Shown: one piece after another, positions 29,021 through 52,682 of the stretch
Position numbering within the stretch: position 1 is the first letter of the stretch
How the letters are laid out: every line of letters starts with the position of its first letter
Virus record (IMG/VR): IMGVR_UViG_2721755676_000004
Reading direction: 5' to 3' (one strand)
DNA: 54,213 bases
Origin: a virus
Lineage: Duplodnaviria; Heunggongvirae; Uroviricota; Caudoviricetes
Program-made: the position numbers and the translations under genes
The notes under the pieces: generated by a model
Told to the model about the DNA's origin: nothing
The model's input: only the letters and a program-made list of their open reading frames with translations
Databases searched by the model: none

Positions 29021-29485
29021 TTACTTTAAACACTGCTCGGTTATGTATTGCTGAGCACCTTCAAGTTGGGCCTGCATCATTACCAGTCGTTCCCGGAGGG
29101 TGAAATAATCCCGTTCAGCGGTGTCTGCCAGTCGGGGGGAGGCTGCATTATCCACGCCGGAGGCGGTGGTGGCTTCACGCACTGACTGACAGACTGCTTT
29201 GATGTGCAACCGACGACGACCAGCGGCAACATCATCACGCAGAACATCATTTTCAGCTTTCGCATCAGCTAACTCCTTCGTGTATTTTGCATCGAGCGCA
29301 GCAACATCACGCTGACGCATCTGCATGTCAGTAATTGCCGCGTTCGCCAGCTTCAGTTCTCTGGCATTTTTGTCGCGCTGTTCTTTGTAGGCGATGGCGT
29401 TATCACGGTAATGATTAACACCCCATGACAGGCAGACGACGATGCAGATAACCAGAGCGGAGATAATCGCGGTTACTCTGTTCAT
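29021..29485 (-). CDS. Rz i-spanin
   Basis: N-terminal TM then coiled coil; start [12 protein letters not shown] at 29485 overlaps endolysin stop (ATGA); resembles lambda Rz. Confidence 0.8.
29080..29265 (-). CDS. Rz1 o-spanin lipoprotein embedded in Rz (+1 frame)
   Basis: 61 aa; lipobox LVVVGC; proline-rich (PPPPPAW); fully nested in Rz. Confidence 0.75.
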
Positions 29486-29711
29486 TGCTGACCCCACAAA
29501 CAGATTTCACGCTCAATCTCACGACGAGTCATGAGACCTTTCCATTGCTTACCGCCAGCATATGTCCAGCGACGTAGCTGATCACATGCGCCTTTGATAT
29601 CGCCCTGGTTTATTTTGCGAAGAAGCGTCGATGTTCTGAAATTGCCAGCACCCACGTTGTAAACGAATGAGTAAAGAGCGCCGCGCGTTGTTTCCGGTAT
29701 ATCGACTTTGA
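29482..29711 (-). pseudogene. SAR endolysin, C-terminal fragment (IS2-disrupted)
   Basis: Encodes ...[23 protein letters not shown]...CLWGQQ; reading frame runs into the IS2 left end. Confidence 0.85.
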
Positions 29712-29802
29712 TAGACTGGCCCCCTGAATCTCCAGACAACCAGTATCACTTATTTAAGTGATAGTCTTAATACTAGTTTTTAGACTAGTCATTGGAGAGC
29801 AG

Positions 29803-30168
29803 ATGATTGATGTCTTAGGACCGGAGAAACGCAGACGGCGTACCACACAGGAAAAGATCGCAATTGTTCAGCAGAGCTTTGAACCGGGGATGACGGTCTC
29901 CCTCGTTGCCCGGCAACATGGTGTAGCAGCCAGCCAGTTATTTCTCTGGCGTAAGCAATACCAGGAAGGAAGTCTTACTGCTGTCGCCGCCGGAGAACAG
30001 GTTGTTCCTGCCTCTGAACTTGCTGCCGCCATGAAGCAGATTAAAGAACTCCAGCGCCTGCTCGGCAAGAAAACGATGGAAAATGAACTCCTCAAAGAAG
30101 CCGTTGAATATGGACGGGCAAAAAAGTGGATAGCGCACGCGCCCTTATTGCCCGGGGATGGGGAGTAA
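29803..30168 (+). CDS. insC: IS2 transposase OrfA (InsC)
   Basis: 121 aa from [13 protein letters not shown]; HTH; A AAA AAG slippery site at 30120..30126 near its end. Confidence 0.85.
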
Positions 30169-31031
30169 GCTTAGTCAGCCGTTGTCTCCGGGTGTCGCGT
30201 GCGCAGTTGCACGTCATTCTCAGACGAACCGATGACTGGATGGATGGCCGCCGCAGTCGTCACACTGATGATACGGATGTGCTTCTCCGTATACACCATG
30301 TTATCGGAGAGCTGCCCACGTATGGTTATCGTCGGGTATGGGCGCTGCTTCGCAGACAGGCAGAACTTGATGGTATGCCTGCGATCAATGCCAAACGTGT
30401 TTACCGGATCATGCGCCAGAATGCGCTGTTGCTTGAGCGAAAACCTGCTGTACCGCCATCGAAACGGGCACATACAGGCAGAGTGGCTGTGAAAGAAAGT
30501 AATCAGCGATGGTGCTCTGACGGGTTCGAGTTCCGCTGTGATAACGGAGAAAAACTGCGAGTCACGTTCGCGCTGGACTGCTGTGACCGTGAGGCACTGC
30601 ACTGGGCGGTCACTACGGGCGGCTTCAACAGTGAAACAGTACAGGACGTCATGCTGGGAGCGGTGGAACGCCGCTTCGGCAACGAGCTTCCGGCGTCTCC
30701 AGTAGAGTGGCTGACGGATAATGGTTCATGCTACCGGGCTAATGAAACACGGCAGTTTGCCCGGATGTTGGGGCTTGAACCGAAGAGCACGGCGGTGCGG
30801 AGTCCGGAGAGTAACGGCATAGCAGAGAGCTTCGTGAAAACGATAAAGCGTGACTACATCAGTGTCATGCCCAAACCAGACGGGTTAACGGCAGCAAAGA
30901 ACCTTGCAGAGGCGTTCGAGCATTATAACGAATGGCATCCGCATAGTGCACTGGGTTATCGCTCGCCACGGGAATATCTACGGCAGCAAGCCAGTAATGG
31001 GTTAAGTGATAACAGGTGTCTGGAAATATAG
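30126..31031 (+). CDS. insD: IS2 transposase OrfB (InsD), DDE catalytic domain
   Basis: 301 aa in the -1 frame relative to insC; rve/DDE-type integrase core. Confidence 0.85.
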
Positions 31032-31042
31032 GGGCAAATCCA

Positions 31043-31315
31043 TTTGATGTACGGGTTAATTTGTCTGGCGACCGTGGCAAGGTCTTTATTCAAGAGTGTT
31101 TTGCATTCTGCTTTGGTATACGTTTTACCGAGCATGATGTCTTTTCCTGTATGCCCGTGACATACAGTCCATACACCAACAATATCTTTGTATGGTATGT
31201 AGCTGACACCTTCCAGACCATCGTTACCACTTGGGCCAGTGATTAACACTGATGCTATAGCAATTGCTCCGCCACCAATAGCAGCAGCAACGACTTTTCG
31301 TAATGATGGAGGCAT
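31043..31315 (-). pseudogene. SAR endolysin, N-terminal fragment (IS2-disrupted)
   Basis: [27 protein letters not shown]... signal-anchor-release domain as in phage 21 R; frame continues into IS2 right end after INPYIK. Confidence 0.85.
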
Positions 31316-31530
31316 TATTCACCTCTCGCAGCCTTGCGCTTATCTTCTTTAATCTTGAAATAAAGGTTTGTCAGGTACGTCAGCAGGCCAAATACCAGAC
31401 TACCCAGCACACCGATTGCAGCCCACTGTGACGGAGTTACTCTATCGAGCAACTGTAAAAACCAGTAGCCAGCACTGCCTGCGGAGGTGCCGTAGGCAAT
31501 GCCTGTTGAAATTTTGTCCATGGATTTCAT
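31315..31530 (-). CDS. Pinholin (phage 21 S-like), dual-start motif
   Basis: Starts [10 protein letters not shown] (two Met codons three codons apart); two TM helices; AGGTGAGG SD upstream; ATGA overlap with endolysin start. Confidence 0.8.
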
Positions 31531-31781
31531 AGCCTCACCTCCGCACGGAACGGATGGCATAGTTATTATGTGTAGGCTTTCAGACACATCAATCAGAGCC
31601 TTAATTGATATATATGCTGGAGACGATGCAATATAAAAAGCTCGCCGTAGCGAGCTAATAAAATGTATTTCTCTGATATTATGTTTATTTGTATTAGCTC
31701 AGACTTGACATCACAGGTTTCGTATATAGAACATCATCAAATCTGTCAGTTTGCTATGAATGAGATATAGTAATTGAAGAG

Positions 31782-32177
31782 CTAACCTCGCATGTCAAAG
31801 CCAGATTTCTGAAAATCTCTGTAGACTTCCGGATTGTTGAAGGCCGGAAATTTGGCTTTATGAGCTGCGGACTTTATCGCTTCGCAATAGGCTTTATCAC
31901 CGTTACTGGTAGATATTTTTAACGCCGTGCCATCCTGAGAGAATTCCATATGCAACCTGCATTTTTTCCCTTTCCAGTTATGCGGCTCATCAAGTTTGGC
32001 ATTAATTGCAGCTCTGATTCCCCGCGCTTGCGCCCCCCATTCATCCTGATCATCCCAGCGTCCTGAACTGCAACTACCTGTAGCAGTAGTTTTGTGGCAA
32101 TCTGAAGGGTGTAAAGGTGTGCATCCCGCAACAAAACCGACCCAAAAAGTCAACATAACGATTTTCTTTAATCCCAC
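31782..32177 (-). CDS. Lipoprotein with TolA domain III-like C-terminal domain (paralog 1)
   Basis: 131 aa; signal peptide with lipobox FVAGC; C-terminal KGKKCRLHMEF...CEAIKSAAHKAKFPAFNNPEVYRDF matches the TolA C-terminal pattern. Confidence 0.65.
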   Translation of the reverse strand: MGLKKIVMLTFWVGFVAGCTPLHPSDCHKTTATGSCSSGRWDDQDEWGAQARGIRAAINAKLDEPHNWKGKKCRLHMEFSQDGTALKISTSNGDKAYCEAIKSAAHKAKFPAFNNPEVYRDFQKSGFDMRG

Positions 32178-32327
32178 TTCTTGCTCCTCAATCCATTAAA
32201 ATCTCAGCAATAGTAGTTGTTACGTCCGCCACTGGCTCAGAGCTGACTATCCGCTAAATTTAGCTCAGTGCCGTAGCTGTGTCAGAACAAACCTAAGCCG
32301 AAACCGTTTATTACAAAACAATAAATA

Positions 32328-32756
32328 TCAGGGTTTAAAATCCAGCACCCCATTTTGAAATACTTTATATACTTCCGGCGAAGGGGGGGCAGGTATATCA
32401 GCATTCTTTATCGCATTCATCGCTTCACGACATAAATCGAGGTCTCCACTTTCTCTTTTAACCTCCAGTAGAAGGCCATTCGGGGCCATATGCATTCTCA
32501 GTGTACACTCTTTTCCTGAATACTTACTCGCATCCCCGAACTGTTTTTCGATGGCGCTCTTGATTTGATGGGCATACAGACGGATATCCTCACTAACATC
32601 AGAAGTACGTTCAGATGAACTCACATACTGTGTCTCTATTGCTTTATCGGAGTAATATGATGTACGGTCATGATAATTTGTCGATACAGCATCAGTGCAC
32701 CCGATAATAATCCCACTAATAATCAACGTAAGAATTGATGCGCTACGAAAACCCAT
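32328..32756 (-). CDS. Lipoprotein with TolA domain III-like C-terminal domain (paralog 2)
   Basis: 142 aa; lipobox IIIGC; C-terminal YAHQIKSAIEKQFGDASKYSGKECTLRMHMAPNGLLLEV...PPSPEVYKVFQNGVLDFKP closely resembles the E. coli TolA C-terminus as I remember it. Confidence 0.7.
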   Translation of the reverse strand: MGFRSASILTLIISGIIIGCTDAVSTNYHDRTSYYSDKAIETQYVSSSERTSDVSEDIRLYAHQIKSAIEKQFGDASKYSGKECTLRMHMAPNGLLLEVKRESGDLDLCREAMNAIKNADIPAPPSPEVYKVFQNGVLDFKP

Positions 32757-33344
32757 TTTTCCTCACATATGTCATATAGTAAAGGATTATATATACCGTT
32801 GTTTTGGACGCTCAAACAGCGAATCAGATCAAATAAAACGCACATTTGTTAACATTTACACAAAGTCTGCGTGGGATATTCTGAAAGAATATCCATAATG
32901 TGGATAGAATCTATTGAAGTGCATGGTGCCGGGTGCCTCCCGGTGAACAAAATGTTCGTGATACCTGTCGGCGACAGAAAAGGTTAATGGTATCACCCCA
33001 CCGCACAGGGGGATTCACCATGCAGGAGTTTTCTTAGCAAACTCACTGCGCGCCCGGCAACTCCCAACCACATAAAATGCGGAGTTTGTGGTATTTATGC
33101 ATATAACTCGCAGGAATTATCTTAAAAAACTGATGTCGATCCGGATTAAAAAGAAGCAGGTCATCATCAGATGACTGGAAAAAAGGAAAACAAAAAATAC
33201 TCATCATACAGTTTTGATTGCAGGGATGAGCCTGCTATGCACAATATGCAGAATATAAGCAAGATAAAAATATGCAGGCATATTATTTCGGATTTTGTTA
33301 TTAACACAACCTTTTTAATAATCATTTGGCATACAATAAACCAG

Positions 33345-33373
33345 CCCAAAAAGAACCGCCTAAACAGGCGGTT
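33345..33373 (-). terminator. Rho-independent terminator candidate in Q-to-lysis spacer
   Basis: AACCGCCT-loop-AGGCGGTT hairpin followed by CTTTTTGGG on the minus strand; a TATAAT hexamer lies ~40 nt upstream on the same strand. Confidence 0.4.
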
Positions 33374-33693
33374 GGTCAATACAAAGGATGCTTCGTCTTT
33401 ATTATAGTAATCTGAGGCGTCGGGTGTCTTGTATCAGACAACATATTGTCCCGCTAAACAGCGAATTACAAACCACCCTGCAATGATCTCTCATCTCATT
33501 TTATATGAGTTGACGACATCAGGATAACGCATCATCAGCCCCTGCCAAGAAATATCAAAACTCCCGCCAGCAATGTGTTATCACAATATTGTAAAAAAAA
33601 CACAGCACCGAAACTATAACTGGTCTCTGTTATAATTTGGAGCAGAAAGACCAGTTGCCCAACTAGCAGCATTCTCCCCTGCTTTCCTGACGT

Positions 33694-33722
33694 AAAAAAA
33701 CCGCATTAAGCGGTTTTTTTAC
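33694..33722. terminator. Bidirectional terminator-like hairpin downstream of Q-like gene
   Basis: AAAAAAACCGCATTAAGCGGTTTTTTT: short GC stem flanked by A-run and T-run. Confidence 0.45.
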
Positions 33723-33800
33723 GATGTCCATGTCTGCAATCCGCCTCGCGATACAGCTTTGCGAAGCATAGCAAAATTGAAGCAGTTTATACGTAAGAAA

Positions 33801-34343
33801 TCAAGCCATTTTCTCAGCAAATGATTCACGCATGGGAATATATAGGGCATACTCAGCAACAGCTAACCAATTAGCAATCCGTTTTTCGCATGTGCTAAAA
33901 CACCACTCTGGGTGTGCATCATTTAGCAATTCAGCCATTTTGCGCTTAGTCATCCCCCGCCCTTCATAGCGTTGCCGGAGAATGCAAATCAATCCTGGAT
34001 GCTCTGCCAGCACCTCACTTATGACTCGATCAATACATAACGCCTCTGCATCAGTACAATGCGCCAGCCAGCTCTTTTGCTTGCCGTTGATCATCTCTCG
34101 CAAAAACGCTTCCAGCTCAGCTTTCTCTATTCCCGCTTTTTTCATTCTGCGCAGGGCTTCATTAATGGCTGTTTTCGTCAGTTTTTTGGATGCCAACAAC
34201 TGATTGAACATATTCCCTGACCTGCCACCGCCAATATACGACCAGCGCCCCCACATACGTAGTTTTCCCTGAATCCAGACACTTTCCAGCGTGGTGAGGC
34301 GAAGGTGTTCTCCGCTTTTTCCTGTATTCGTTGGGTAAATCAT
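33801..34343 (-). CDS. Putative late-gene antiterminator (Q-like by position)
   Basis: 180-aa basic protein immediately upstream of terminator/promoter-like spacer and lysis genes; family not confirmed; start may be internal. Confidence 0.4.
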   Translation of the reverse strand: MIYPTNTGKSGEHLRLTTLESVWIQGKLRMWGRWSYIGGGRSGNMFNQLLASKKLTKTAINEALRRMKKAGIEKAELEAFLREMINGKQKSWLAHCTDAEALCIDRVISEVLAEHPGLICILRQRYEGRGMTKRKMAELLNDAHPEWCFSTCEKRIANWLAVAEYALYIPMRESFAEKMA

Positions 34344-34630
34344 AAATGACCTTTCTTTCTCCAGATTTCTTGTGTGCGAAAAACCCCTTCAGCATGCATC
34401 AGGCGCAATTCTTCTTTGGTGTAATCGCTGGTTTTTACCCGCCCGTCGATTAGATCGTGGCATGAGCTACAGGCTATCGCCGCCTGCATATCGTGTGGTT
34501 TTGTCGCTGTTCCGCACGTCCCCGCCAGCCTGTAATGCGCCAGCACAGAGGTTTCGGGATTGTGATTGCAGTAGCCAGGGATTCTGATCTGGCACATCTG
34601 GCCTTTAGCCGCTTTACGTAAATTCACCAT
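34340..34630 (-). CDS. Cys-rich nin-region protein (YbcO/DUF1364-like)
   Basis: 96 aa; conserved Cys/His pattern (CQIRIPGYCNHNPETSVLAHYR...CSSCHD) resembling DLP12 YbcO. Confidence 0.55.
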   Translation of the reverse strand: MVNLRKAAKGQMCQIRIPGYCNHNPETSVLAHYRLAGTCGTATKPHDMQAAIACSSCHDLIDGRVKTSDYTKEELRLMHAEGVFRTQEIWRKKGHL

Positions 34631-35229: not shown

Positions 35230-35509
35230 TTCTCAATCTCTCGATGGCGCAGCGCAGCAGATGCCAGTTGTTCAGGCTGACGAATAAAGTATAAATAAAC
35301 TGGCTATGGTGTAAAGCCCCACATAGCATGAACAAACACTACATATCAAATAGCTGGTACAAGGATAGAAATACGACATTTATTATTAAAAACGATTAGA
35401 TAAATTACATTTTAATGTTATGCAAAAGTTCTTTTTTATCATAACATTTCAATAAAAGCATTACAGATGCAATCATCCCGTCATCATCAATTATTTAAGG
35501 TGGTTAAAC

Positions 35510-35596
35510 ATGGAAAATAACAAGTTCGCACATCTCGCTCCTTTTTTATCCGTAATCCTTTTCGCTTGTTGTTTTATATGGGCATTATTTTTATAA
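35510..35596 (+). CDS. Small hydrophobic peptide (28 aa), candidate small membrane protein
   Basis: ATG preceded by AAGGTGG at optimal spacing; MENNKFAHLAPFLSVILFACCFIWALFL; lies in a very AT-rich spacer. Confidence 0.3.
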   Translation: MENNKFAHLAPFLSVILFACCFIWALFL

Positions 35597-36042
35597 AGTA
35601 GCCACATGATAAGTTGCTGGAATCATATTTCCCACTCAAGTCATTAACATTTGATAAGATATATCTAAAAGGACGCCTTTACATTATTTATGTGTATATA
35701 ATTTATTTATATACACAGTAAAGGTATCCTGGGAAAATACTTATCGTTAAAAAATACATCATAAATAATCAAGCTGAAATTTCAGAACACAACTAATACA
35801 CACAATAAGGTTCAGTAACAATAATCTATGTGGACTACATCGAGATTTTTTGATTAAACTTTAATAACTTATTCCTAACACACAGAATGCATAAACTAAA
35901 AGTAAAACAAATAGTTATACGAAAAACAACCATATTTATTATATCTTCTCCTCTAATCAACATATCAATTATGTGTTTCATAACAGCTTGACATAACCCT
36001 CAAAAACACGCATTTATAATGCATGTTTTTGAGGAGGTGGTT

Positions 36043-36381
36043 ATGACACACAAGAGAATTCCTAAAGATTGGGTAATCAAACGCTCAACTCCGTTCTTCA
36101 CAAAAGAGAACGTACCTTCAGCGTTATTAACACATCATAATACAGCAGCAGGTGTTTTTGGGCAGTTGTGCGTAATGGAAGGCACTGTAACATATTATGG
36201 TTTTACTGATGAGAATGCTACTGAACCGGAGATAAAAGTAGTCATTAATGCTGGCGCTTTTGCAACAAGCCCACCACAATACTGGCACCGTGTTGAACTA
36301 AGCGATGATGCTCAGTTTAATATTAACTTTTGGGTCGCTCCAGACTTCTCGGGCGAAAAAGTCTATAGCACCAAAAAATAG
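36043..36381 (+). CDS. YeaR-like DUF1971 protein
   Basis: GAGGAGG SD before ATG at 36043; RSTPFF...VMEGTVTYYGFTDE...AGAFATSPPQYWH...FNINFWVAP resembles E. coli YeaR. Confidence 0.7.
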   Translation: MTHKRIPKDWVIKRSTPFFTKENVPSALLTHHNTAAGVFGQLCVMEGTVTYYGFTDENATEPEIKVVINAGAFATSPPQYWHRVELSDDAQFNINFWVAPDFSGEKVYSTKK

Positions 36382-37104
36382 ATGATCATATTAAAAATGC
36401 TTTAACAGTCAGACCCGGCAGGGCTATCCCCGACGGGTCTCATTTTTGTAAATATATTGGTTCTACATTGACAGGAGACTTCAACCATAAGAAGTAATCT
36501 GAATACTTGAGCAATAAATTTACTTAAGATTAATGAGCGCACCTTGCCGGACAAAGATAAACCAAGGTAACACCTTTTTTCTAGCCAGTATGTAATCAAT
36601 CAGAAAGCCGCTCCATAAGAACAACAGCAAGACAATAAATTGCCATTACAGCCGCAATAGCTAGCGCACATTTGAGAACCAGCACGACAACCTCCTGTAT
36701 TGGACGTACACCAGTTCTGATAAATATGAGGCTGTCTCATCATTGATTCAATATAACTATTGGGTATAGTTTCTGTGATTTTGTTCTGTAGAAATGGAAC
36801 ACAACAACCAGTCACCACCAGCACTTCTTTAAATACGCCAAGTCCGACGCAAGCTAACCTTCTAGTCCGCTTTGAGCGAGGAGCGGACCAAACCCGGCCA
36901 ACTGACTCTTAAAGGGGCCGCAGGAATTTTTCGTCTGAACTTTCGAAGCTCCTCTCCCTGAAGACAGAAAACTTCTGTGTGCTGTGGGAATATTGAATCT
37001 TTGCCTTAGATATAAATAATTTTATCCCGCCTGAAGTTTACATTATTTTATTTATCTGTTTTTCTAAATCAGACTGCACTCCTTACTTAAATCAGGAGCC
37101 AGTC

Positions 37105-38304
37105 ATGCCATTTGTTATTTATGTGTTTACTATCAGTGCCTTTGCGCTCGGACTCGCGGAATTTGTCCCCATTGGGCTGACAGACGTTATGGCTCAGGGG
37201 TTGTGTGTGGGTGTGGAGCAGACCGGGGCAGCGGTTACAACCTATGCACTGGGGGCAACGTTCGCGGCACCCGTACTGTCTGCGCTGACAGCAAGCTGGA
37301 GCCGGAAAAATGTAATGCTTACAACTGCCGTTGTGTTTACTGCCGGTAGTCTGGCGGCCGCGTTTGCAGCCACATTACCTCAGCTCCTGTTAGCGCGGTT
37401 CATTGCTGGTCTGGGACACGGCCTGTTTCTGGCTGCGGCATCCAGTACCGCAGCTCGTCTTGCTGGACCGGGTAAAGCAGGCAGAGCGGTGGCTGTGGTA
37501 TTTGGTGGCTTTACTCTGGCGATGGCAATCGGCGTACCGCTGAGTACATGGTTGGGGGGGGTGGTCTCATGGCGTCCAGTTCTCGGCGCTATTGCCGCTT
37601 TTGGCGCGTTCGGATTCCTTGGACTGTTGTTCGGTATGAAAGATCCCGTACGCAGCGTGCCCGGTGAACATAGTGACTCAGCAATGCAGAATATCGGCAT
37701 GCTGTTTAACCGTAAGTTGCTGGCCGGCGCGCTGGTTACGGTGCTGGCGTATGCAGGCTCGTTTACGGCTTACACCTTTATCGCACCTATTCTGACGCAG
37801 GTGACAGGGGTTACCGGAGCAACGGTGAGTCTGTTTATGCTGGTTTACGGTATTACAGCTGCGGTAGGTAATATTCTTGGTGGGAAACTTACCGACAGCA
37901 TGGGGGTTAATCGTGCCAATATACTCATCATTAGCGGCATTGTTGTTGTCGTGCTTGGTATGTGGCTGCTGTCATCCTCACCGGTGAGCATGGGCATTCT
38001 GGTTGCGCTGCTGGGTATGGTGACATTTGCCGCAGTGCCGGCACTGCAGGCCCGTCTGATTGGTGTCGCTGAGCAACATGCTCCTCATGCGCATGGTGTT
38101 GCTGCCGGCCTGAATATTGCGGGCTTCAACTCAGGTATAGCGCTGGGATCAGTACTGGGCAGCATTACTATAAGCCACGCCGGTATCGTGTATACCGGTA
38201 TCAGCGGTGCGATTGTTTCTCTGCTCGGCCTGCTGTTGCTGCTTGCACAAATCCGTCGCAGCCACAGTCGTAAATTTCAACAGGTTAAAATCGTAGGCCA
38301 GTAA
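37105..38304 (+). CDS. MFS transporter (12 TM)
   Basis: 399-aa polytopic hydrophobic protein with MFS-like loop motifs. Confidence 0.85.
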   Translation: MPFVIYVFTISAFALGLAEFVPIGLTDVMAQGLCVGVEQTGAAVTTYALGATFAAPVLSALTASWSRKNVMLTTAVVFTAGSLAAAFAATLPQLLLARFIAGLGHGLFLAAASSTAARLAGPGKAGRAVAVVFGGFTLAMAIGVPLSTWLGGVVSWRPVLGAIAAFGAFGFLGLLFGMKDPVRSVPGEHSDSAMQNIGMLFNRKLLAGALVTVLAYAGSFTAYTFIAPILTQVTGVTGATVSLFMLVYGITAAVGNILGGKLTDSMGVNRANILIISGIVVVVLGMWLLSSSPVSMGILVALLGMVTFAAVPALQARLIGVAEQHAPHAHGVAAGLNIAGFNSGIALGSVLGSITISHAGIVYTGISGAIVSLLGLLLLLAQIRRSHSRKFQQVKIVGQ

Positions 38305-38315
38305 AGGGAGGTTAT

Positions 38316-39008
38316 ATGCTTACCCGTGAAAATATGCTTAATGGCACATTTGTCAGGGTGCATGAAGCGCTGCTCCCGGCGAATATGCTCTGGGACGCTG
38401 AAAAAATACGCGCATCAATGAACTCTACTCTGGAGGAGCGCCCGACGGGTGCTCCTGTCTGGATATTTGCCTACGGGTCATTGATGTGGAATCCCGTGCT
38501 GGCGATTGAAGAAATGCAACGGGCCCGTCTGAAAGGATGGCAGCGCAGTTTCTGCATTCGTTTGATATCCGGACGAGCGACTCCTGATGTCCCCGGCAGG
38601 ATGTTATCGCTCGACGAAGGTGGAATTACCGAAGGTATTGCGTTCAGACTGCCGGAATCGACTCTTATTAATGAGCTGGAAATTGTCTGGACGCGCGAGA
38701 TGATAACCGGTCTTTACCGTCCGGTCTGGGCAGACGTTTCGCTAGGAAACGGTGAGGAAATTCAGGCGCTGGCTTTCGTATCAGACAGACTGCATCCGCA
38801 TTATGAACAGGACAATCTTACAGCGACCGTAGCGTTGAGCATCGCATCTGCCCGTGGAGACATTGGCACGAATGCAGATTATGTATGGAAACTGCAGGCC
38901 ACTCTGGGTGCGTTGGGAATACGGAATGATTACGTGAGTGAACTGGCCCTTGCTCTGCATGAGGCTCCCTGTAACGATAAACTTCATCAGCGAGGCGCTT
39001 CACTATGA
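38316..39008 (+). CDS. ChaC-family gamma-glutamylcyclotransferase-like protein
   Basis: 230 aa; VWIFAYGSLMWNP motif and overall similarity to E. coli ChaC. Confidence 0.75.
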   Translation: MLTRENMLNGTFVRVHEALLPANMLWDAEKIRASMNSTLEERPTGAPVWIFAYGSLMWNPVLAIEEMQRARLKGWQRSFCIRLISGRATPDVPGRMLSLDEGGITEGIAFRLPESTLINELEIVWTREMITGLYRPVWADVSLGNGEEIQALAFVSDRLHPHYEQDNLTATVALSIASARGDIGTNADYVWKLQATLGALGIRNDYVSELALALHEAPCNDKLHQRGASL

Positions 39009-39886
39009 GCCATCTGAGCCATCTGCGAACGTTTCTTGAGGCCTATCGCTCTGGCTCCTTTTCAAAGGCGGCAGAACTACTGGGCATCACTCAGCCCGCG
39101 GCGTCACAGCATATCCAGTCTCTTGAGACTCTGGTTGGTAAGCGTCTGTTTATCAGGCAGGCCAGAGGCGTGACGGCAACCGAAGCTGCGGATGAGCTTG
39201 CCCGCTCAGTTTCACCCTTCATTGATGGTCTGGAAGAAAAGCTGTCCTCTTTCCGGTCAGGCTCTGTACGCGGGGGAACAATTAATCTGGCAGGACCGCC
39301 AGATTTTATTCATTCCCGGCTTGGGACAGTAATGGCTCCACTAATGAAGGAGGGGTATCGCCTACGCTTTCATACCGGCAATAAGCAACGTATTTATTCC
39401 CTTTTGCATGACGGGAGCGCCGATCTCGCTGTTACCGCATCTATGCCTGATGACCGTCTGTACGGCTATGCACATCTACTGACTGAACGCATGCTCCTTG
39501 TTCATGCTCCCGCCATGTCAGAGATCATCGGATCAGAACCTGGTGCTGAAACGCTTGCCTCATTACCGCTGATTGCTTATGACGAAGAGTTGCCACTGAT
39601 TAGAGCGCTCTGGGCCTCCATGTTTCAGAGAGCCCCTGAGATGCAGGCTACATTCACCATTCCGGATTTACGTATTATCCGCGACTTGGTCTGTGACGGC
39701 CACGGGTGGACAGTGCTGCCGGATTATCACTGTGACAATGACCTGAAAAGTGGTCGCCTGATTTCAGTGACACCTGCAGACCTCGCTCCGACTAATCATC
39801 TTTATCTGGTCTGGAACAAAAGGACGGCTAATAACAGCCGAACCGCCTATGTTCGGGATTACATTCTTAAAACGTTTCCGCGTTGA
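39005..39886 (+). CDS. LysR-family transcriptional regulator
   Basis: 293 aa; N-terminal HTH (FSKAAELLGITQPAASQHIQSLE) plus LysR substrate-binding domain; overlaps ChaC-like stop. Confidence 0.85.
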   Translation: MSHLSHLRTFLEAYRSGSFSKAAELLGITQPAASQHIQSLETLVGKRLFIRQARGVTATEAADELARSVSPFIDGLEEKLSSFRSGSVRGGTINLAGPPDFIHSRLGTVMAPLMKEGYRLRFHTGNKQRIYSLLHDGSADLAVTASMPDDRLYGYAHLLTERMLLVHAPAMSEIIGSEPGAETLASLPLIAYDEELPLIRALWASMFQRAPEMQATFTIPDLRIIRDLVCDGHGWTVLPDYHCDNDLKSGRLISVTPADLAPTNHLYLVWNKRTANNSRTAYVRDYILKTFPR

Positions 39887-39932
39887 TGTTTGAAACGGAT
39901 GATTGGCGATGCGTATCATAAGTTACGTATGT

Positions 39933-39960
39933 CCGCTTCTGGCACAAAGCAGACGCCCAC
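39933..39960. repeat. 28-bp repeat copy A (TTGGCACAAAGCNGAC..CCAC core)
   Basis: Near-identical to 43606..43633, direct orientation. Confidence 0.5.
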
Positions 39961-40016
39961 TCTCACGCGAATGCTTTGCCCTTGACTTGCCAACAACCGT
40001 ATCGCTTGCTCCGCAA

Positions 40017-41309
40017 CTATGGTTTTTTATTAGAATCTTCGCCACTAAATAAATTATAATAAATTGATTTTATTAGATATCTATCAGAATCTATATGGTC
40101 AGCACGAGTAGCATGCTCTAATGTTTCAAATGCTAGGGTTTGTGCGGCTTCAGCAAAAATTCCAGGCCAACCCTTACTCAGCATCGACAGTCCTTTAAGT
40201 ACCCTTATCTGAATTTCCCTCATACTGGCACCATCGCGCGCAACAGGTGAGAAAAAGTCTTCAAGTAGATCGTTATTCTGAAGTGGTGCAACATGTACAG
40301 AAGGATATTTCACTTCTATTTCATCAGATTTATTCTGCGCGTAAGCGGAAAGTATACGTACACCTCTGCCAATGACATCAATGGCGGTTCCAGGATCGTT
40401 CACTGCGGGGGAAAGGGCTCGGCAGGCTATTTCGGCCATGACGCTAAGACAAAATCGGGGGTCCTGAGCAAATGAACGTACATCCGAGACAATAATCGTC
40501 TCAAGTAAATCGGTGCTGATTGATGACTCCTGGCCCTGACTCAGGTACAAAACTGGCGTGGACGGATGTATGAAACTGCCCGGCTGCGCCACGAGGTATA
40601 CATGACGGGGATCATTGGTCAGCAGCTTGCTGAGTTTCACCATATCAACATATTCAACATAGCCAATCTTTTTCGGATAAACTGCAACCGTTCCTTTCGG
40701 CTGTTCATTGTTCTCAAGCCATGGATATCCGCCGAGACAGGGATTTCTTGCTCTCGCAATAAATGTTTCGATGGCCGCCTGTTCTACTTTTGCCGTTGTC
40801 TCACCAACCCTCCCCAGAGAGGTCAAATGCTGTATCCAGCGAAGCAATGTGATGAGGATTAAGGCAATGACAACCAGTGTTACAATGAATAAAATGACTC
40901 TCCCCCTTTCTCCATAAGCTCCCATATTGAGGGCAATAATCCCTACCAGACTGAAGAGAAAAGAACCGATGAAGGTGGCCAGTACATTTTGTGTGGTGAC
41001 GTCTTCAACAACTAAACGAGTAGCTCTGGGAGTCACATTAGTAGTGGCTGAACCGTAGGCTGTGACCATGATGCTCAGCGAAAATGTGGTCACGGCCAGC
41101 ATACTCGATGCCAGTATGTTCAGAATGTTATCGACTGCTTCCGCACCAACCTTCACGGAAACCGACTCAGGTATCATTGATTTAAAAAGAATTGATAAAA
41201 GGGCCGTTATTATTGCGACAATTGCGAATAACGTTGCCCTGAACCATAGTTTTTTAAATGTCTGCTTCAGCATCCATTTCCAGCGTGAAATCATTCTGCA
41301 TTCTCTCAT
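40017..41309 (-). CDS. Integral membrane protein with C-terminal soluble domain
   Basis: 430 aa; several N-terminal TM helices; start may be internal. Confidence 0.6.
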   Translation of the reverse strand: MRECRMISRWKWMLKQTFKKLWFRATLFAIVAIITALLSILFKSMIPESVSVKVGAEAVDNILNILASSMLAVTTFSLSIMVTAYGSATTNVTPRATRLVVEDVTTQNVLATFIGSFLFSLVGIIALNMGAYGERGRVILFIVTLVVIALILITLLRWIQHLTSLGRVGETTAKVEQAAIETFIARARNPCLGGYPWLENNEQPKGTVAVYPKKIGYVEYVDMVKLSKLLTNDPRHVYLVAQPGSFIHPSTPVLYLSQGQESSISTDLLETIIVSDVRSFAQDPRFCLSVMAEIACRALSPAVNDPGTAIDVIGRGVRILSAYAQNKSDEIEVKYPSVHVAPLQNNDLLEDFFSPVARDGASMREIQIRVLKGLSMLSKGWPGIFAEAAQTLAFETLEHATRADHIDSDRYLIKSIYYNLFSGEDSNKKP

Positions 41310-41357
41310 ATTGCAGCCGGGATAAATAAATGCCGCCTCTGTGGCGGCATGTTGCTG

Positions 41358-43361
41358 TTAACGAACCAGATGCAGGAAGTGCAGGTGTTTTTCGTACTGG
41401 TCCAGTATGTCATTAATCAGCTGTTCCTGATTCCAGCCCATTACATCATAATTTTGGCCGCCCTCTTTGAGATAGACTTCAGCGCGATAATATCGATGTT
41501 GTTCACTCTGCTGCTCATCATTATCCAGCGCAGCGAGCGCGAAGGTCGGTGAGTTATACCCGCGAAGCCTCACTTCATATATATAATTCAGCTCGTTGCC
41601 CAAATCGACTTCAAGGCGAATACGATCCTCGGCGGCGTCACTGATGTGGCTTATCGTTCCCTGCTTGTTAAGTTCCTCCTGAACCAGCGTCATGGCGGGT
41701 TGGATAATGTCGTCCATAAAACGTTTCACAAGAGAGCGCTTCGGCAAATACGCGATATTGCGTAACCTTCTCTGCCAGGGAATTGGGTTACGTGCAGCCG
41801 TAGGAGCAATAGTCGCCATGCTAAGGCTTTCACGCTTGGTCAAATCCCGACGCAGGGCTTTTAACAGTCCGTATATGGATATTAATAAGATAACTGAGAA
41901 GGGCAATGCACTCGCTATCGTTACGGTTTGCAACGCACTCAGCCCCCCTGCGATCAGCAGGGCAATAGCAACAACGCCCATGAGCGATGCCCAGAAAATT
42001 CGCTGCCAGACGGGCGTGTTTGCCACCCCACCTGATGCCAGAGTATCCACAACCATTGCCCCCGAATCAGCAGACGTTACAAAGAAGACGATGACCATCG
42101 CCATTGCAATGAATGACAGCACGGAAGAGAACGGGAAATGCTCCAGGAAATTAAACAGGGCAAGCGCAACATCCTGCTGAACGGTATTGGCGAGGTCAGT
42201 GGCGCCCTGGTTCATGATGAGATAGATGGCGCTGTTTCCAAACACCGTCATCCACATGAGCGTAAAGCCGGCGGGAACAAACAACACGCCAGTCACGAAC
42301 TCACGAATTGTCCTGCCGCGGGAAACGCGTGCAATGAACATACCTACAAACGGCGACCATGAAAGCCACCATCCCCAGTATAATAATGTCCAGCCCCCCA
42401 GCCAGTTGCTCGACTTGGGTTCATACGCGTAAAGGTTGAACGTTTTACTCACCAGTTCCGACAGATAACCACCCGTATTTTCCACAAATGACTTCAGCAG
42501 AAGCACAGTGGGACCCAGGCACAAGACCAGCGCCAGGAGCAACACTGCCAGGCCCAGATTAAGCTCAGACAGGATGCGTATTCCCTTGTCCAGGCCGGAC
42601 ACCACCGAAATCGTCGCTAACCCCGTGATGACCACGATCAAAATGACCTGTACCGTTTCATTGATGGGCACGCCGAAAAGATGGTTCAAACCGGCATTCA
42701 CCTGCAATACACCGTAACCCAGCGATGTTGCAACGCCAAAGACAGTGCCTATCACGGCGAAGATATCAACCGCGTGGCCTATAGGCCCGTAAATGCGATC
42801 GCCGATAATGGGATAGAGCGCAGAACGCAGCGTTAAAGGCAGACCGTGACGGTAACTGAAAAAGGCCAGAATCAGCGCCACGATGGCATAAATTGCCCAT
42901 GCGTGCAGACCCCAGTGGAAGAACGTCAGGCGCATGGCTTCCTTCGCTGCCGCAACGGTCTCTGGAGTGCCGACAGGTGGCGAAAGATAATGCATCACAG
43001 GTTCGGCAACGCCAAAGAACATCAGGCCGATCCCCATCCCTGCCGAAAAAAGCATCGCGAACCAGGAGTGGTAGCTGAAATCAGGCTGCGCATGGTCTGG
43101 GCCCAGCTTTATATCACCGTAACGTGAGAGTCCAAGGAACGTGACGCTCAGTAAAATCAGGGCCACAGCAAGTATGTAGAACCAGCTGGCATTCGTGAAG
43201 ATTTGTTGCTGAAGTAGTTTAAAATTTTTGTCGGCGACATCCGGGAATACGGCGGCAAAGGCGACAAGAAGGAAAATTAGCAAAGCAGATGTAAAGAATA
43301 CCGCTTTGTTAATCTGGCTTGTAGACTTCTTTGGGGTTGTATCATTTTCACTCATAATCAT
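41358..43361 (-). CDS. BCCT-family transporter (BetT/CaiT-like)
   Basis: 667 aa; strong resemblance to E. coli BetT including WTLFYW/WWxAWSPFVG-type motifs and long cytoplasmic C-tail. Confidence 0.85.
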   Translation of the reverse strand: MIMSENDTTPKKSTSQINKAVFFTSALLIFLLVAFAAVFPDVADKNFKLLQQQIFTNASWFYILAVALILLSVTFLGLSRYGDIKLGPDHAQPDFSYHSWFAMLFSAGMGIGLMFFGVAEPVMHYLSPPVGTPETVAAAKEAMRLTFFHWGLHAWAIYAIVALILAFFSYRHGLPLTLRSALYPIIGDRIYGPIGHAVDIFAVIGTVFGVATSLGYGVLQVNAGLNHLFGVPINETVQVILIVVITGLATISVVSGLDKGIRILSELNLGLAVLLLALVLCLGPTVLLLKSFVENTGGYLSELVSKTFNLYAYEPKSSNWLGGWTLLYWGWWLSWSPFVGMFIARVSRGRTIREFVTGVLFVPAGFTLMWMTVFGNSAIYLIMNQGATDLANTVQQDVALALFNFLEHFPFSSVLSFIAMAMVIVFFVTSADSGAMVVDTLASGGVANTPVWQRIFWASLMGVVAIALLIAGGLSALQTVTIASALPFSVILLISIYGLLKALRRDLTKRESLSMATIAPTAARNPIPWQRRLRNIAYLPKRSLVKRFMDDIIQPAMTLVQEELNKQGTISHISDAAEDRIRLEVDLGNELNYIYEVRLRGYNSPTFALAALDNDEQQSEQHRYYRAEVYLKEGGQNYDVMGWNQEQLINDILDQYEKHLHFLHLVR

Positions 43362-43605
43362 TTATTCCATTAATTAAATCCGCACTGGATAGAAGGTACT
43401 ACCTCTCACAGAGTAGCAAAGTTCAACTGGCTATGCGGGGTTAATCGGAATGCATGGTGGAATGAGTGCCGATACAAATCATCCTATATTCTAAGGAGTT
43501 TTAAGTTACTCAGCCTGCCAATTACTGGGGCATTTAATTTGTATGATCTGTATCAAAGCTGGGATATAAGTTAAGTGAAGTATATTAGGCACGAATTACC
43601 AGCGT

Positions 43606-52285: not shown

Positions 52286-52480
52286 ATGAGATATGACAAT
52301 GTTAAACCATGTCCATTTTGTGGTTGTCCATCAGTAACGGTGAAAGCCATTTCAGGATATTACCGAGCGAAGTGTAACGGATGCGAATCCCGAACCGGTT
52401 ATGGTGGAAGTGAAAAAGAAGCACTCGAAAGATGGAATAAACGAACCACTGGAAATAATAATGGAGGTGTTCATGTATAA
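52286..52480 (+). CDS. ralR: RalR (Lar) restriction-alleviation / DNase toxin protein
   Basis: 64 aa from MRYDNVKPCPFCGCPSVTV; Cys4 motif. Confidence 0.7.
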   Translation: MRYDNVKPCPFCGCPSVTVKAISGYYRAKCNGCESRTGYGGSEKEALERWNKRTTGNNNGGVHV

Positions 52481-52682
52481 AATTACCGCCACTATTGAAA
52501 AGGAAGGTGGCACTCCTACTAACTGGACAAGATATTCAAAATCTAAACTAACGAAATCAGAATGCGAAAAAATGCTCTCAGGTAAAAAAGAAGCAGGCGT
52601 TTCCAGAGAGCAGAAAGTAAAACTGATAAATTTTAATTGCGAGAAACTTCAGTCCTCGAGAATTGCATTGTATTCAAATTAA
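52473..52682 (+). CDS. Small protein (69 aa), YdaC-like
   Basis: GGAGGTG SD before ATG at 52473; overlaps ralR end. Confidence 0.5.
   Translation: MYKITATIEKEGGTPTNWTRYSKSKLTKSECEKMLSGKKEAGVSREQKVKLINFNCEKLQSSRIALYSN

Follow-up and report, generated by a model that had tools for sequence, protein, structure and literature searches.

Here, we describe two adjacent genes of a Rac-type lambdoid prophage of E. coli whose products are predicted lipoproteins ending in a copy of domain III of TolA (TolA III), and we propose that these proteins act as decoys, or competitors, for the ligands of TolA III. The genes, open reading frames A and B (ORF A and ORF B), are read from the minus strand of a 54,213-nt stretch of Caudoviricetes DNA (IMG/VR record IMGVR_UViG_2721755676_000004), referred to below as the window. 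To our knowledge, TolA III is the point through which every group A colicin and filamentous phage passes on its way into the cell. As decoys, the A and B proteins would confer tolerance to Tol-dependent colicins and filamentous phages, a reading to which we assign a probability of roughly 0.55. Both ORFs behave like cargo ("moron") genes of the prophage, and both encode an intact TolA III behind a lipoprotein signal in place of the rest of TolA.

Two short predicted lipoproteins with a TolA domain III

A preliminary description of this DNA, made from its letters and translations, had attributed to both ORFs a lipoprotein signal peptide and a C-terminal module of about 80 residues resembling TolA III, the latter by comparison with the C-terminus of E. 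coli TolA. The two genes lie exactly at the coordinates given there, on the minus strand (Table 1), the E. coli TolA sequence used for that comparison agrees with the alignment to the Protein Data Bank (PDB), and the domain itself is borne out by profile and structure searches. Against Pfam TolA_C (PF06519; gathering threshold, 25 bits), the ORF A product scores 82.6 bits (E = 2.4e-23, model positions 4–96 of 96) and the ORF B product 54.6 bits (E = 1.3e-14, positions 10–92 of 96). In phmmer searches of the PDB, the top matches were all E. coli TolA III entries, with E-values of 5e-28 for A and 5e-9 for B; the chains matched were 1s62, 3qdp, 2x9a (complex with IF1 g3p), 1tol (complex with M13 g3p) and 3qdr (complex with colicin A). 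AlphaFold models, computed from small family alignments, give the domain a predicted local distance difference test score (pLDDT) of about 90 in both proteins, with the order helix-strand-strand-helix-helix-strand. These three strands and three helices make up an alpha/beta fold that can be superposed on solved TolA III. With Foldseek, the structural comparison suggested in the preliminary description gave a template modelling (TM) score of 0.96 for A against 2x9a_B (root-mean-square deviation 0.6 Å over 88 residues, 59% identity) and of 0.92 for B against 3qdp (1.1 Å over 86 residues, 31% identity). The intradomain cysteine pair of E. coli TolA (C363 and C388) aligns in ORF A, in ORF B and in plasmid homologues, and its retention in A and B fits folding in the periplasm.

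Models of full-length TolA set a limit to this match. Both proteins fall below the cutoff of NF007065 (107.8 bits for A and 53.7 for B; cutoff, 213). Against TIGR02794 (cutoff, 59.45), A passes with 75.6 bits, but over model positions 265–362 only, and B stays under the cutoff with 47.2 bits. Neither protein has the inner-membrane anchor of domain I or the long helical domain II, and neither gene stands in a tol-pal operon. Judged by these profiles, A and B belong to the TolA_C domain family and not to TolA proper.

The lipoprotein signals, IIIGC in A (Cys20) and FVAGC in B (Cys19), are those named in the preliminary description, and both pass a rule of the PROSITE PS51257 type: K or R within residues 1–7, an uncharged h-region, and [AGS]-Cys with the cysteine at positions 15–35. 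Family membership was judged by the lipobox consensus [LVI][ASTVI][GAS]C, or PS51257, together with a basic n-region. The lipobox cysteine is nearly invariant among ORF A alleles whose signal peptides differ elsewhere. Under the +2 rule, a residue other than Asp after the lipidated cysteine predicts sorting of a lipoprotein to the outer membrane. Both products carry Thr at this position, and we infer that they would be lipidated at the lipobox cysteine and sorted to the outer membrane. Between signal and domain, the two proteins differ. The linker of A is probably disordered, its model having pLDDT values below 50 at residues 18–50. The segment of B that holds two additional cysteines also has pLDDT values below 50 and is almost invariant across genera in our alignment.

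Both genes have well-placed Shine-Dalgarno sequences: GAGGA at 32764–32760, four to five nt 5′ of the ATG of ORF A, and GAGGAG at 32189–32184, six nt 5′ of the GTG of ORF B. Existing annotation departs from these gene calls. RefSeq/PGAP marks only the 3′ 261 bp of ORF A, as a "tolA" pseudogene "missing N-terminus". The label stems from the equivalog models for full-length TolA, of which only the C-terminal ends match. ORF A is an intact, conserved lipoprotein gene, not a tolA pseudogene, and its annotation should be corrected to say so. For ORF B, RefSeq WP_001348108.1 starts at a later ATG, which yields 124 residues and loses the basic n-region. The GTG start fits better, as it gives a KK n-region and the spacing to GAGGAG noted above.

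Both genes are under purifying selection. The ratio of nonsynonymous to synonymous substitution rates (dN/dS) is 0.08–0.17 for ORF B relative to copies from plasmids and other genera (dS 0.2–1.05). For ORF A it is 0.09–0.34 in the TolA domain and 0.3–0.6 in the faster-evolving linker. The domain is thus the constrained part of A, and the linker is looser.

Ligand-binding surfaces

We compared the known binding surfaces in E. coli TolA numbering, using published interface maps (PMC4339652, PMC3365938). In TolA, helix α1 and strand β3 form the docking site at which the N1 domain of g3p, colicin N and TolB bind via strand addition (PMC4339652). Substitutions D418P and K420P abolish all three interactions, and cells carrying these TolA variants, which cannot bind TolB, leak periplasmic alkaline phosphatase to about the same extent as cells that have no TolA (PMC4339652). 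As aligned, ORF A keeps the α1 motif DIxxYAxQIKSAIE and the β3 motif LDFKP (Table 2), and it is by this measure a close mimic of the E. coli TolA binding surfaces; its colicin A box is nearly unchanged, and two of the three cation-pi lysines remain. ORF B is a diverged, horizontally mobile relative whose ligand spectrum may differ from that of A. In related lipoproteins from Klebsiella plasmids, described below, β3 keeps LDFR and the colicin A box is changed, which suggests that, in the wider group of TolA III lipoproteins, the β3 site is the one that counts.

Table 2. Surfaces of TolA III that contact ligands, as aligned in E. coli TolA, in the ORF A and ORF B products and in two Klebsiella plasmid lipoproteins
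Surface	E. coli TolA	ORF A	ORF B	Klebsiella plasmid lipoproteins
Helix α1	DINNYAGQIKSAIE	DIRLYAHQIKSAIE	EWGAQARGIRAAIN	KISSYAAAIKTAVE / KIVVYAAQIRNAIV
Strand β3	LDFKP	LDFKP (unchanged)	FDMRG	LDFRP / LDFRL
Colicin A box	LLDIKP	LLEVKR	ALKIST	LNSAIA / VNSATA
Three cation-pi lysines (colicin A contacts)		two kept	none	none

Separate histories of ORF A and ORF B

The preliminary description took A and B for diverged paralogs sitting in tandem. As a local duplication, this did not hold up. The two are 28% identical over the TolA III domain and have different closest relatives, which makes them distant homologues that have come to lie side by side; the low identity, together with the different blocks of homology to which the two genes belong, rules out tandem duplication.

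ORF A was found only in lambdoid prophages of E. coli. Its relatives at 91%, 74% and 66% identity all come from this species, and all are intact genes of 142 codons in which the frame and the domain are kept. They occupy the slot between Q and holin in other E. coli lambdoid prophages, from which ORF B is absent. The Q genes 5′ of them are of the DUF1133 or the PF03589 type, with three Q types in all. The moron position proposed in the preliminary description, between a Q-like gene and the holin, is therefore well founded: in the window, the flanking genes are recognised by DUF1133 and Phage_antitermQ on one side and by Phage_holin_2_1 and the PGAP name essD on the other; A recurs behind different Q types, and B is missing from the other A-bearing prophages. 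Some prophages carry further cargo in this slot, namely a SASA esterase and an AraC-type gene. The DNA block that is common to the ORF A prophages (L017 and L018) spans 33429..32327 of the window, includes an STnc100 element and ends at the stop codon of A. Among full-length TolA proteins, the closest to A is of the E. coli type, at 55–59% identity.

Across complete E. coli genomes, ORF A is present in 888 of 5426 (16%), nearly always on the chromosome. In prophage-type contigs of IMG/VR, this window's A allele occurs at 80 loci, of which 77 have B as well, at a fixed spacing of 154 nt. Deposited phage genomes are a different matter, since only one in 50,697, mEp460_ev081 (LR597641.1), carries either gene. 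In that phage, positions 5709–7443 hold the A–B pair with STnc100 and the start of the holin gene, 96.8% identical to the window over 1.7 kb and next to a different Q gene. The arrangement is consistent with acquisition of the module by recombination with a resident prophage.

ORF B has a far wider range. Relatives at 80–89% identity, of 131–149 residues, occur in genomes labelled Citrobacter, Enterobacter, Klebsiella, Raoultella and Serratia, among others. A scan of one genome per species returned 33 loci, in genera that include Leclercia, Kluyvera, Pantoea, Buttiauxella, Rouxiella and Yokenella; all are from Enterobacterales except two short contigs binned in non-enterobacterial metagenome-assembled genomes (MAGs). 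These two 8-kb contigs (L026 and L027), with homologues at 89% identity, are labelled Lachnospiraceae and Treponemataceae and are most likely mis-binned fragments of enterobacterial plasmids. In PLSDB, 604 plasmids have a full-length copy of ORF B, mostly from E. coli and Shigella; the plasmid types are IncI1/B/O and pO157. In complete E. coli genomes, ORF B is found in 1269 of 5426 (23%), with about 784 chromosomal copies at 99% identity or more (at least 99%) and about 515 plasmid copies at 80–90%. A phage-restricted family is thus rejected for B, which is mostly a plasmid and chromosomal gene across the Enterobacterales. The name "phage lipoproteins" given in the preliminary description is too narrow for B.

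The surroundings of B vary greatly, with about 20 different neighbourhoods among 32 loci. In the IncI1/B/O conjugative plasmids examined, the B-type gene directly follows the relaxase gene nikB (for example, at 6965–7396 of pHUSEC41-1), and no promoter-like or terminator-like site was found between nikB and the B-type gene of an IncI1/B/O plasmid. On pO157 (NZ_CP076239.1, 4964–5395), a homologue about 88% identical follows a truncated nikB near toxB. One chromosomal copy adjoins GmrSD/HEPN defence genes. Between the window and the plasmid or chromosomal copies, homology covers the ORF and about 30 nt upstream, from 32207/32214 to about 31780, so that B moves as a minimal cassette of about 430 bp. 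The placement of B-like genes, judged by one shared flank, is stable in four species of Leclercia and four of Enterobacter.

TolA III lipoproteins on other mobile elements

The family extends beyond close relatives of A and B. A HMMER search with ORF A against 1.84 billion cluster representatives found 333 relatives. Among the best 150 of these, 72 are short (100–195 residues), and 45 of the 72 have an N-terminal lipobox. One relative lies on a 10,060-bp ColRNAI plasmid of Klebsiella (NZ_CP031718.1) that encodes a tRNase-type bacteriocin with its immunity and lysis genes. Beside these genes, at 1512–2245, a TolA_C lipoprotein of 123 residues and a signal-peptide protein of 121 residues that consists of TonB_C only are encoded with a 4-nt overlap. 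This pair may be a dual decoy. Free copies of the outer membrane-facing domains of both TolA and TonB on a bacteriocin plasmid are hard to explain other than by interference with Tol- and Ton-dependent import. On another Klebsiella plasmid, a gene for a TolA_C lipoprotein lies 3′ of a thioredoxin-fold gene.

The Klebsiella plasmid lipoproteins (10-kb ColRNAI and IncFII/MPF_I plasmids) resemble A in having a lipobox followed by TolA III, at 36–39% identity to A and with LDFR in β3. They differ from it in forming a separate lineage and in their partners, a periplasmic TonB_C-only protein in one case and a thioredoxin-fold gene in the other. With them we group the stand-alone TolA_C gene "tolA" of small E. 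coli ParE2 plasmids, which is listed with the words "tolA ... cell envelope integrity protein" and without a function (PMC6807383). In full-text searches of the literature, this passing mention was all that we found on TolA III lipoproteins of mobile elements, and no functional study of them came up. A remark on "TolA" in connection with the ciprofloxacin-induced gene EDL933_2012 concerns a tail-fibre gene, and we discarded it.

A proposed decoy role

In the mechanism that we propose, the A or B protein would be exported, would receive its lipid on the cysteine of the lipobox and would be sorted to the outer membrane, on the inner leaflet of which an N-terminal segment of about 25–35 residues would let it display a free periplasmic TolA III. 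Since these copies lack TolA domains I and II, they would not be energised by TolQR and could only bind. Their targets would be the N1 domain of g3p from filamentous phages, the regions by which group A colicins are translocated, and the N-terminus of TolB, of which E-type colicins make use. Tolerance to these agents would follow in a lysogen, or in the host of a plasmid with a B-type gene, possibly at the cost of a mild Tol-Pal defect.

Three observations lend indirect support to the decoy reading: A keeps the surfaces by which TolA binds g3p, colicin N and TolB; a TolA III lipoprotein sits beside TonB_C on a bacteriocin plasmid; and on IncI1/B/O plasmids, which make pili, B-type genes come after the relaxase gene. 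Also in its favour we count the bare architecture of lipobox and complete TolA III, the purifying selection on both genes and their frequency in E. coli, their behaviour as mobile accessory genes, and the GmrSD/HEPN defence genes beside one chromosomal B copy. Laboratory precedents point the same way. Levengood-Freyermuth et al. reportedly found in 1993 that periplasmic TolA III, a dominant-negative construct of like logic, made cells tolerant to colicins and phage, and leaky. In the reverse arrangement, g3p-N1 placed in the periplasm sequesters TolA, lowers phage uptake by 4 logs and alters sensitivity to colicin A (PMC10424213). TolA is present at only 400–800 copies per cell, so an ordinary lipoprotein could outnumber it. 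For the I-pilus phage IF1, TolA III is the coreceptor (title of PDB entry 2x9a), which offers a reason why an IncI1/B/O plasmid would place a decoy in its transfer region.

Several points weigh against this role. The affinities of TolA III are only micromolar (1.8 µM for colicin N, 1.3 µM for colicin A, 12–15 µM for g3p and about 40 µM for TolB; PMC4339652, PMC3365938), and a decoy would need abundance or good placement. Neither protein matches a defence model in PADLOC-DB v2, and the best PHROG of both, 5772, is of "unknown function". The putative promoter and terminator that would serve expression in the lysogen are matches to consensus only. A and B stand in the late operon downstream of Q and may be made mainly in lytic growth, when protection would matter less. 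B has lost the colicin A lysines, has an altered β3 and carries an invariant cysteine-containing segment; its ligand may not be one of those of TolA. The stable placement of B-like genes in Leclercia and Enterobacter, seen from one shared flank, could reflect a housekeeping role in the envelope. Finally, binding of TolB could harm the host by producing a tol phenotype.

It is also possible, although we think it unlikely, that A and B modulate Tol-Pal for the benefit of the element itself. Tethered to the outer membrane, TolA III would capture the N-terminus of TolB, or Pal, and transmit no force. Uncoupling at the time when the late operon fires would loosen the outer membrane, with more vesicles or blocked constriction, and aid lysis and the release of virions (for the plasmid copies, the gain would be in mating); tolerance to colicins and phages would be a by-product. 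The location of the genes between Q and holin, after an STnc100-type element, places them for Q-dependent late transcription, and A keeps the β3 strand that TolB needs; the leakiness of the D418P and K420P variants, in which TolB binding is lost, also speaks for such an effect. However, a full lysis cassette of holin, endolysin and Rz is already present downstream, and B-type genes are mostly found on plasmids or chromosomes that offer no lysis context. The terminator-like hairpin between B and the holin gene and the promoter-like site before A recall morons that are expressed in the lysogen, and the association of a TolA III lipoprotein with a TonB_C partner on a bacteriocin plasmid would be left unexplained.

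Somewhat less probable again is a physiological role in the envelope, unrelated to defence, for B and perhaps for the wider set of short TolA III lipoproteins, which the prophage and plasmids would merely have picked up. Such a protein might work with Tol-Pal, or regulate it, from the outer membrane, or might bind some other periplasmic ligand through its cysteine-containing segment. Chromosomal B-family genes in representatives of at least 33 Enterobacterales species, under strong purifying selection, would fit a role of this kind, as would the settled placement in Leclercia and Enterobacter noted above and the near invariance of the cysteine-containing segment. The lipoboxes in 45 of the 72 short A-related cluster representatives likewise indicate that the architecture is old and diverse. 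The behaviour of B is nonetheless that of an accessory gene: it moves as a bare cassette of ORF and ribosome-binding site into some 20 neighbourhoods, is enriched on conjugative plasmids and is absent from most E. coli.

That A and B are non-functional debris, tolA fragments that illegitimate recombination brought into a defective prophage, where they decay, is very improbable: the PGAP label of ORF A as a partial tolA pseudogene and the damage to the prophage, in which IS2 splits the endolysin gene, would suit such an origin, but the label is an artefact of C-terminal-only matches to full-length TolA equivalog models, both ORFs have strong ribosome-binding sites and canonical lipoboxes that are not expected of a truncated tolA, diverged alleles keep the reading frame, the lipobox cysteine and the domain, and the intactness of the ORFs, together with purifying selection (dN/dS well below 1), effectively excludes a product of decay.

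Relation to known systems and implications

The TolA domain assignment is already present in RefSeq product names, and we describe neither a new fold nor a new gene. Relative to the TolA III of the host Tol-Pal system (1s62, 3qdp, 1tol and 2x9a), A and B are homologous, with the same fold and disulfide and, in A, the same α1 and β3 surfaces. They differ in that a lipoprotein signal replaces domains I and II and that the genes lie outside the tol-pal operon. Host TolA is tethered to the inner membrane, whereas A and B are presumably tethered to the outer membrane and not energised by TolQR. The periplasmic g3p-N1 construct shares with the proposed decoys the principle that one binding partner, when supplied as a periplasmic copy, titrates the other, and import of colicins and Ff phage is blocked (PMC10424213). 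Laboratory constructs of this kind are engineered and over-expressed, whereas A and B are natural genes of mobile elements, under selection and with a predicted lipid anchor.

Small accessory lipoproteins that protect the host are familiar from other coliphages, temperate or lytic. Examples are Cor (phi80 and N15) and Llp (T5), both directed at FhuA, and the Bor protein of lambda. A and B resemble them in being small accessory lipoproteins encoded by a phage, and we saw no sequence relationship to any of the three. Cor and Llp inactivate an outer-membrane receptor; A and B would instead imitate a periplasmic hub domain. We therefore propose that A and B represent an uncharacterised, widespread variant of the host-protective lipoproteins of mobile elements, with hub-domain imitation as an unusual principle.

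A broader proposal is more tentative, and we hold it at somewhat less than even odds. Lipoprotein copies of TolA III, sometimes accompanied by a TonB C-domain, may constitute a general and as yet unrecognised "hub-domain decoy" class of immunity on mobile elements of the Enterobacterales, built from the parts of the two periplasmic energy transducers that face the outer membrane and directed at Tol- and Ton-dependent bacteriocins and at filamentous (pilus-dependent) phages. Expressed together with the transfer genes of an IncI1/B/O plasmid, the decoy would shield pilus-bearing cells against phages that enter by way of the pilus; in Rac and other prophages of the lambdoid kind, it would serve lysogenic conversion and be carried by about one in six E. 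coli.

If the decoy reading is true, a transferable TolA III decoy would be a broad-spectrum tolerance determinant, present in E. coli at the frequencies given above for A (16%) and B (23%), and the carriers of B-type genes include pO157 and common IncI1/B/O resistance plasmids. It would bear on colicin and bacteriocin therapeutics, on hosts for phage display and on the use of plasmid-dependent phages against resistance plasmids, and could help to explain natural isolates that are colicin-tolerant in the absence of tol mutations. Imitation of a host periplasmic hub domain would also be added to the modes by which mobile elements protect their hosts.

The prophage locus

The window is a Rac prophage in reverse orientation, with intR, xisR, ralR and its RalA small RNA (sRNA), recET, kilR, sieB, trkG and tail genes. 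On the minus strand, the order is DUF1367, YbcO, the Q-like DUF1133 gene, about 750 nt, the STnc100 element, ORF A, about 150 nt and ORF B, followed by a hairpin with a T-run, a P21-type holin gene, an endolysin gene split by IS2, and Rz (Table 1).

Table 1. Features of the ORF A–ORF B region, in window coordinates
Feature	Coordinates	Strand	Remarks
ORF A	32756..32328	minus	ATG start, 142 aa; predicted prolipoprotein with C-terminal TolA domain III
ORF A signal peptide and lipobox	32697..32756	minus	MGFRSASILTLIISGIIIG, C20, Thr at +2; rule-based check
ORF A linker, residues 21–54	32595..32696	minus	Ser/Thr/Tyr/Asp-rich
ORF A TolA III domain, residues 55–142	32331..32594	minus	59% identical to E. 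coli TolA 334–421
ORF B	32177..31782	minus	GTG start, 131 aa; predicted prolipoprotein with TolA domain III
ORF B signal peptide and lipobox	32121..32177	minus	MGLKKIVMLTFWVGFVAG, C19, Thr at +2; rule-based check
ORF B N-terminal segment with two extra cysteines	32049..32120	minus	PLHPSxCHKTTATGSCSSGRWDDQDEW
ORF B TolA III domain, residues 44–131	31785..32048	minus	31% identical to E. coli TolA III
Q-like gene (DUF1133), upstream bound of the slot	33801..34343	minus	Pfam DUF1133, E = 2.5e-107
STnc100-family sRNA element	32865..33053	minus	Rfam RF02076, 85.6 bits (gathering score 47); directly 5′ of ORF A
Sigma-70-like promoter match	32786..32815	minus	TTGAGC-18-TATAAT, 10 of 12 consensus positions; about 30 nt 5′ of ORF A
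Intrinsic-terminator-like hairpin and T-run	31639..31656	minus	AGCTCGCTACGGCGAGCT then TTTTTATATTG; between ORF B and holin
Holin (EssD, P21 S family), downstream bound of the slot	31315..31530	minus	Pfam Phage_holin_2_1, E = 2.1e-35; PGAP essD

The Q-like protein has a marginal match to Phage_antitermQ (26.1 bits; cutoff, 26) and no match in the PDB. Phage records that match 33742–34400, at 89.8–94.7% identity, are annotated "antitermination protein Q | putative protein YbcO"; the match covers the Q-like gene plus the start of the next gene. The layout of promoter, genes and terminator around A and B resembles that of morons, although the promoter-like and terminator-like sites are consensus matches only, and their count is not above the shuffled expectation. 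A second pair of promoter-like and terminator-like sites lies at 33430–33354. Just past the Q-like gene, at 33690–33767, is a strong bidirectional hairpin with A- and T-runs and sub-threshold isrK matches on both strands. The Rfam matches to isrK and STnc350 near ORFs A and B are below their gathering thresholds.

In other prophages (L017 and L018, 6608–6760), a second, partial copy of STnc100 stands just 3′ of ORF A. STnc100 elements may be recombination sites at which cargo in the Q–holin slot is shuffled. According to a 2026 preprint, STnc100 and PasD are associated with the region downstream of Q.

IS2 occupies about 29740–31070 (orfA, 29758–30168; orfB, 30126–31031) and splits rrrD, a gene for a signal-arrest-release (SAR)-type endolysin, into fragments at 30956–31315 and 29482–29739, which leaves this strain with a broken lysis cassette. 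In the same region of another strain, IS2 lies between ORF B and the holin gene instead, which suggests a local hotspot for IS2 insertion near the holin and endolysin genes. A block of non-phage appearance is found at about 35300–43400, between the replication genes and the nin/Q region of Rac; it encodes an MFS transporter, a gamma-glutamylcyclotransferase, a LysR regulator, a DUF2254 protein and a BCCT transporter. The block is bounded by an AT-rich junction (GC content 0.28–0.31 at 35300–35900), and another strain has IS903B and IS1 at or within it. Two further RNA elements are present: at 52479–52657 the antitoxin sRNA RalA, which belongs to the Rac RalR/RalA system and scores 225 bits, and at 1273–1471 an IS009 RNA element that scores 221 bits.

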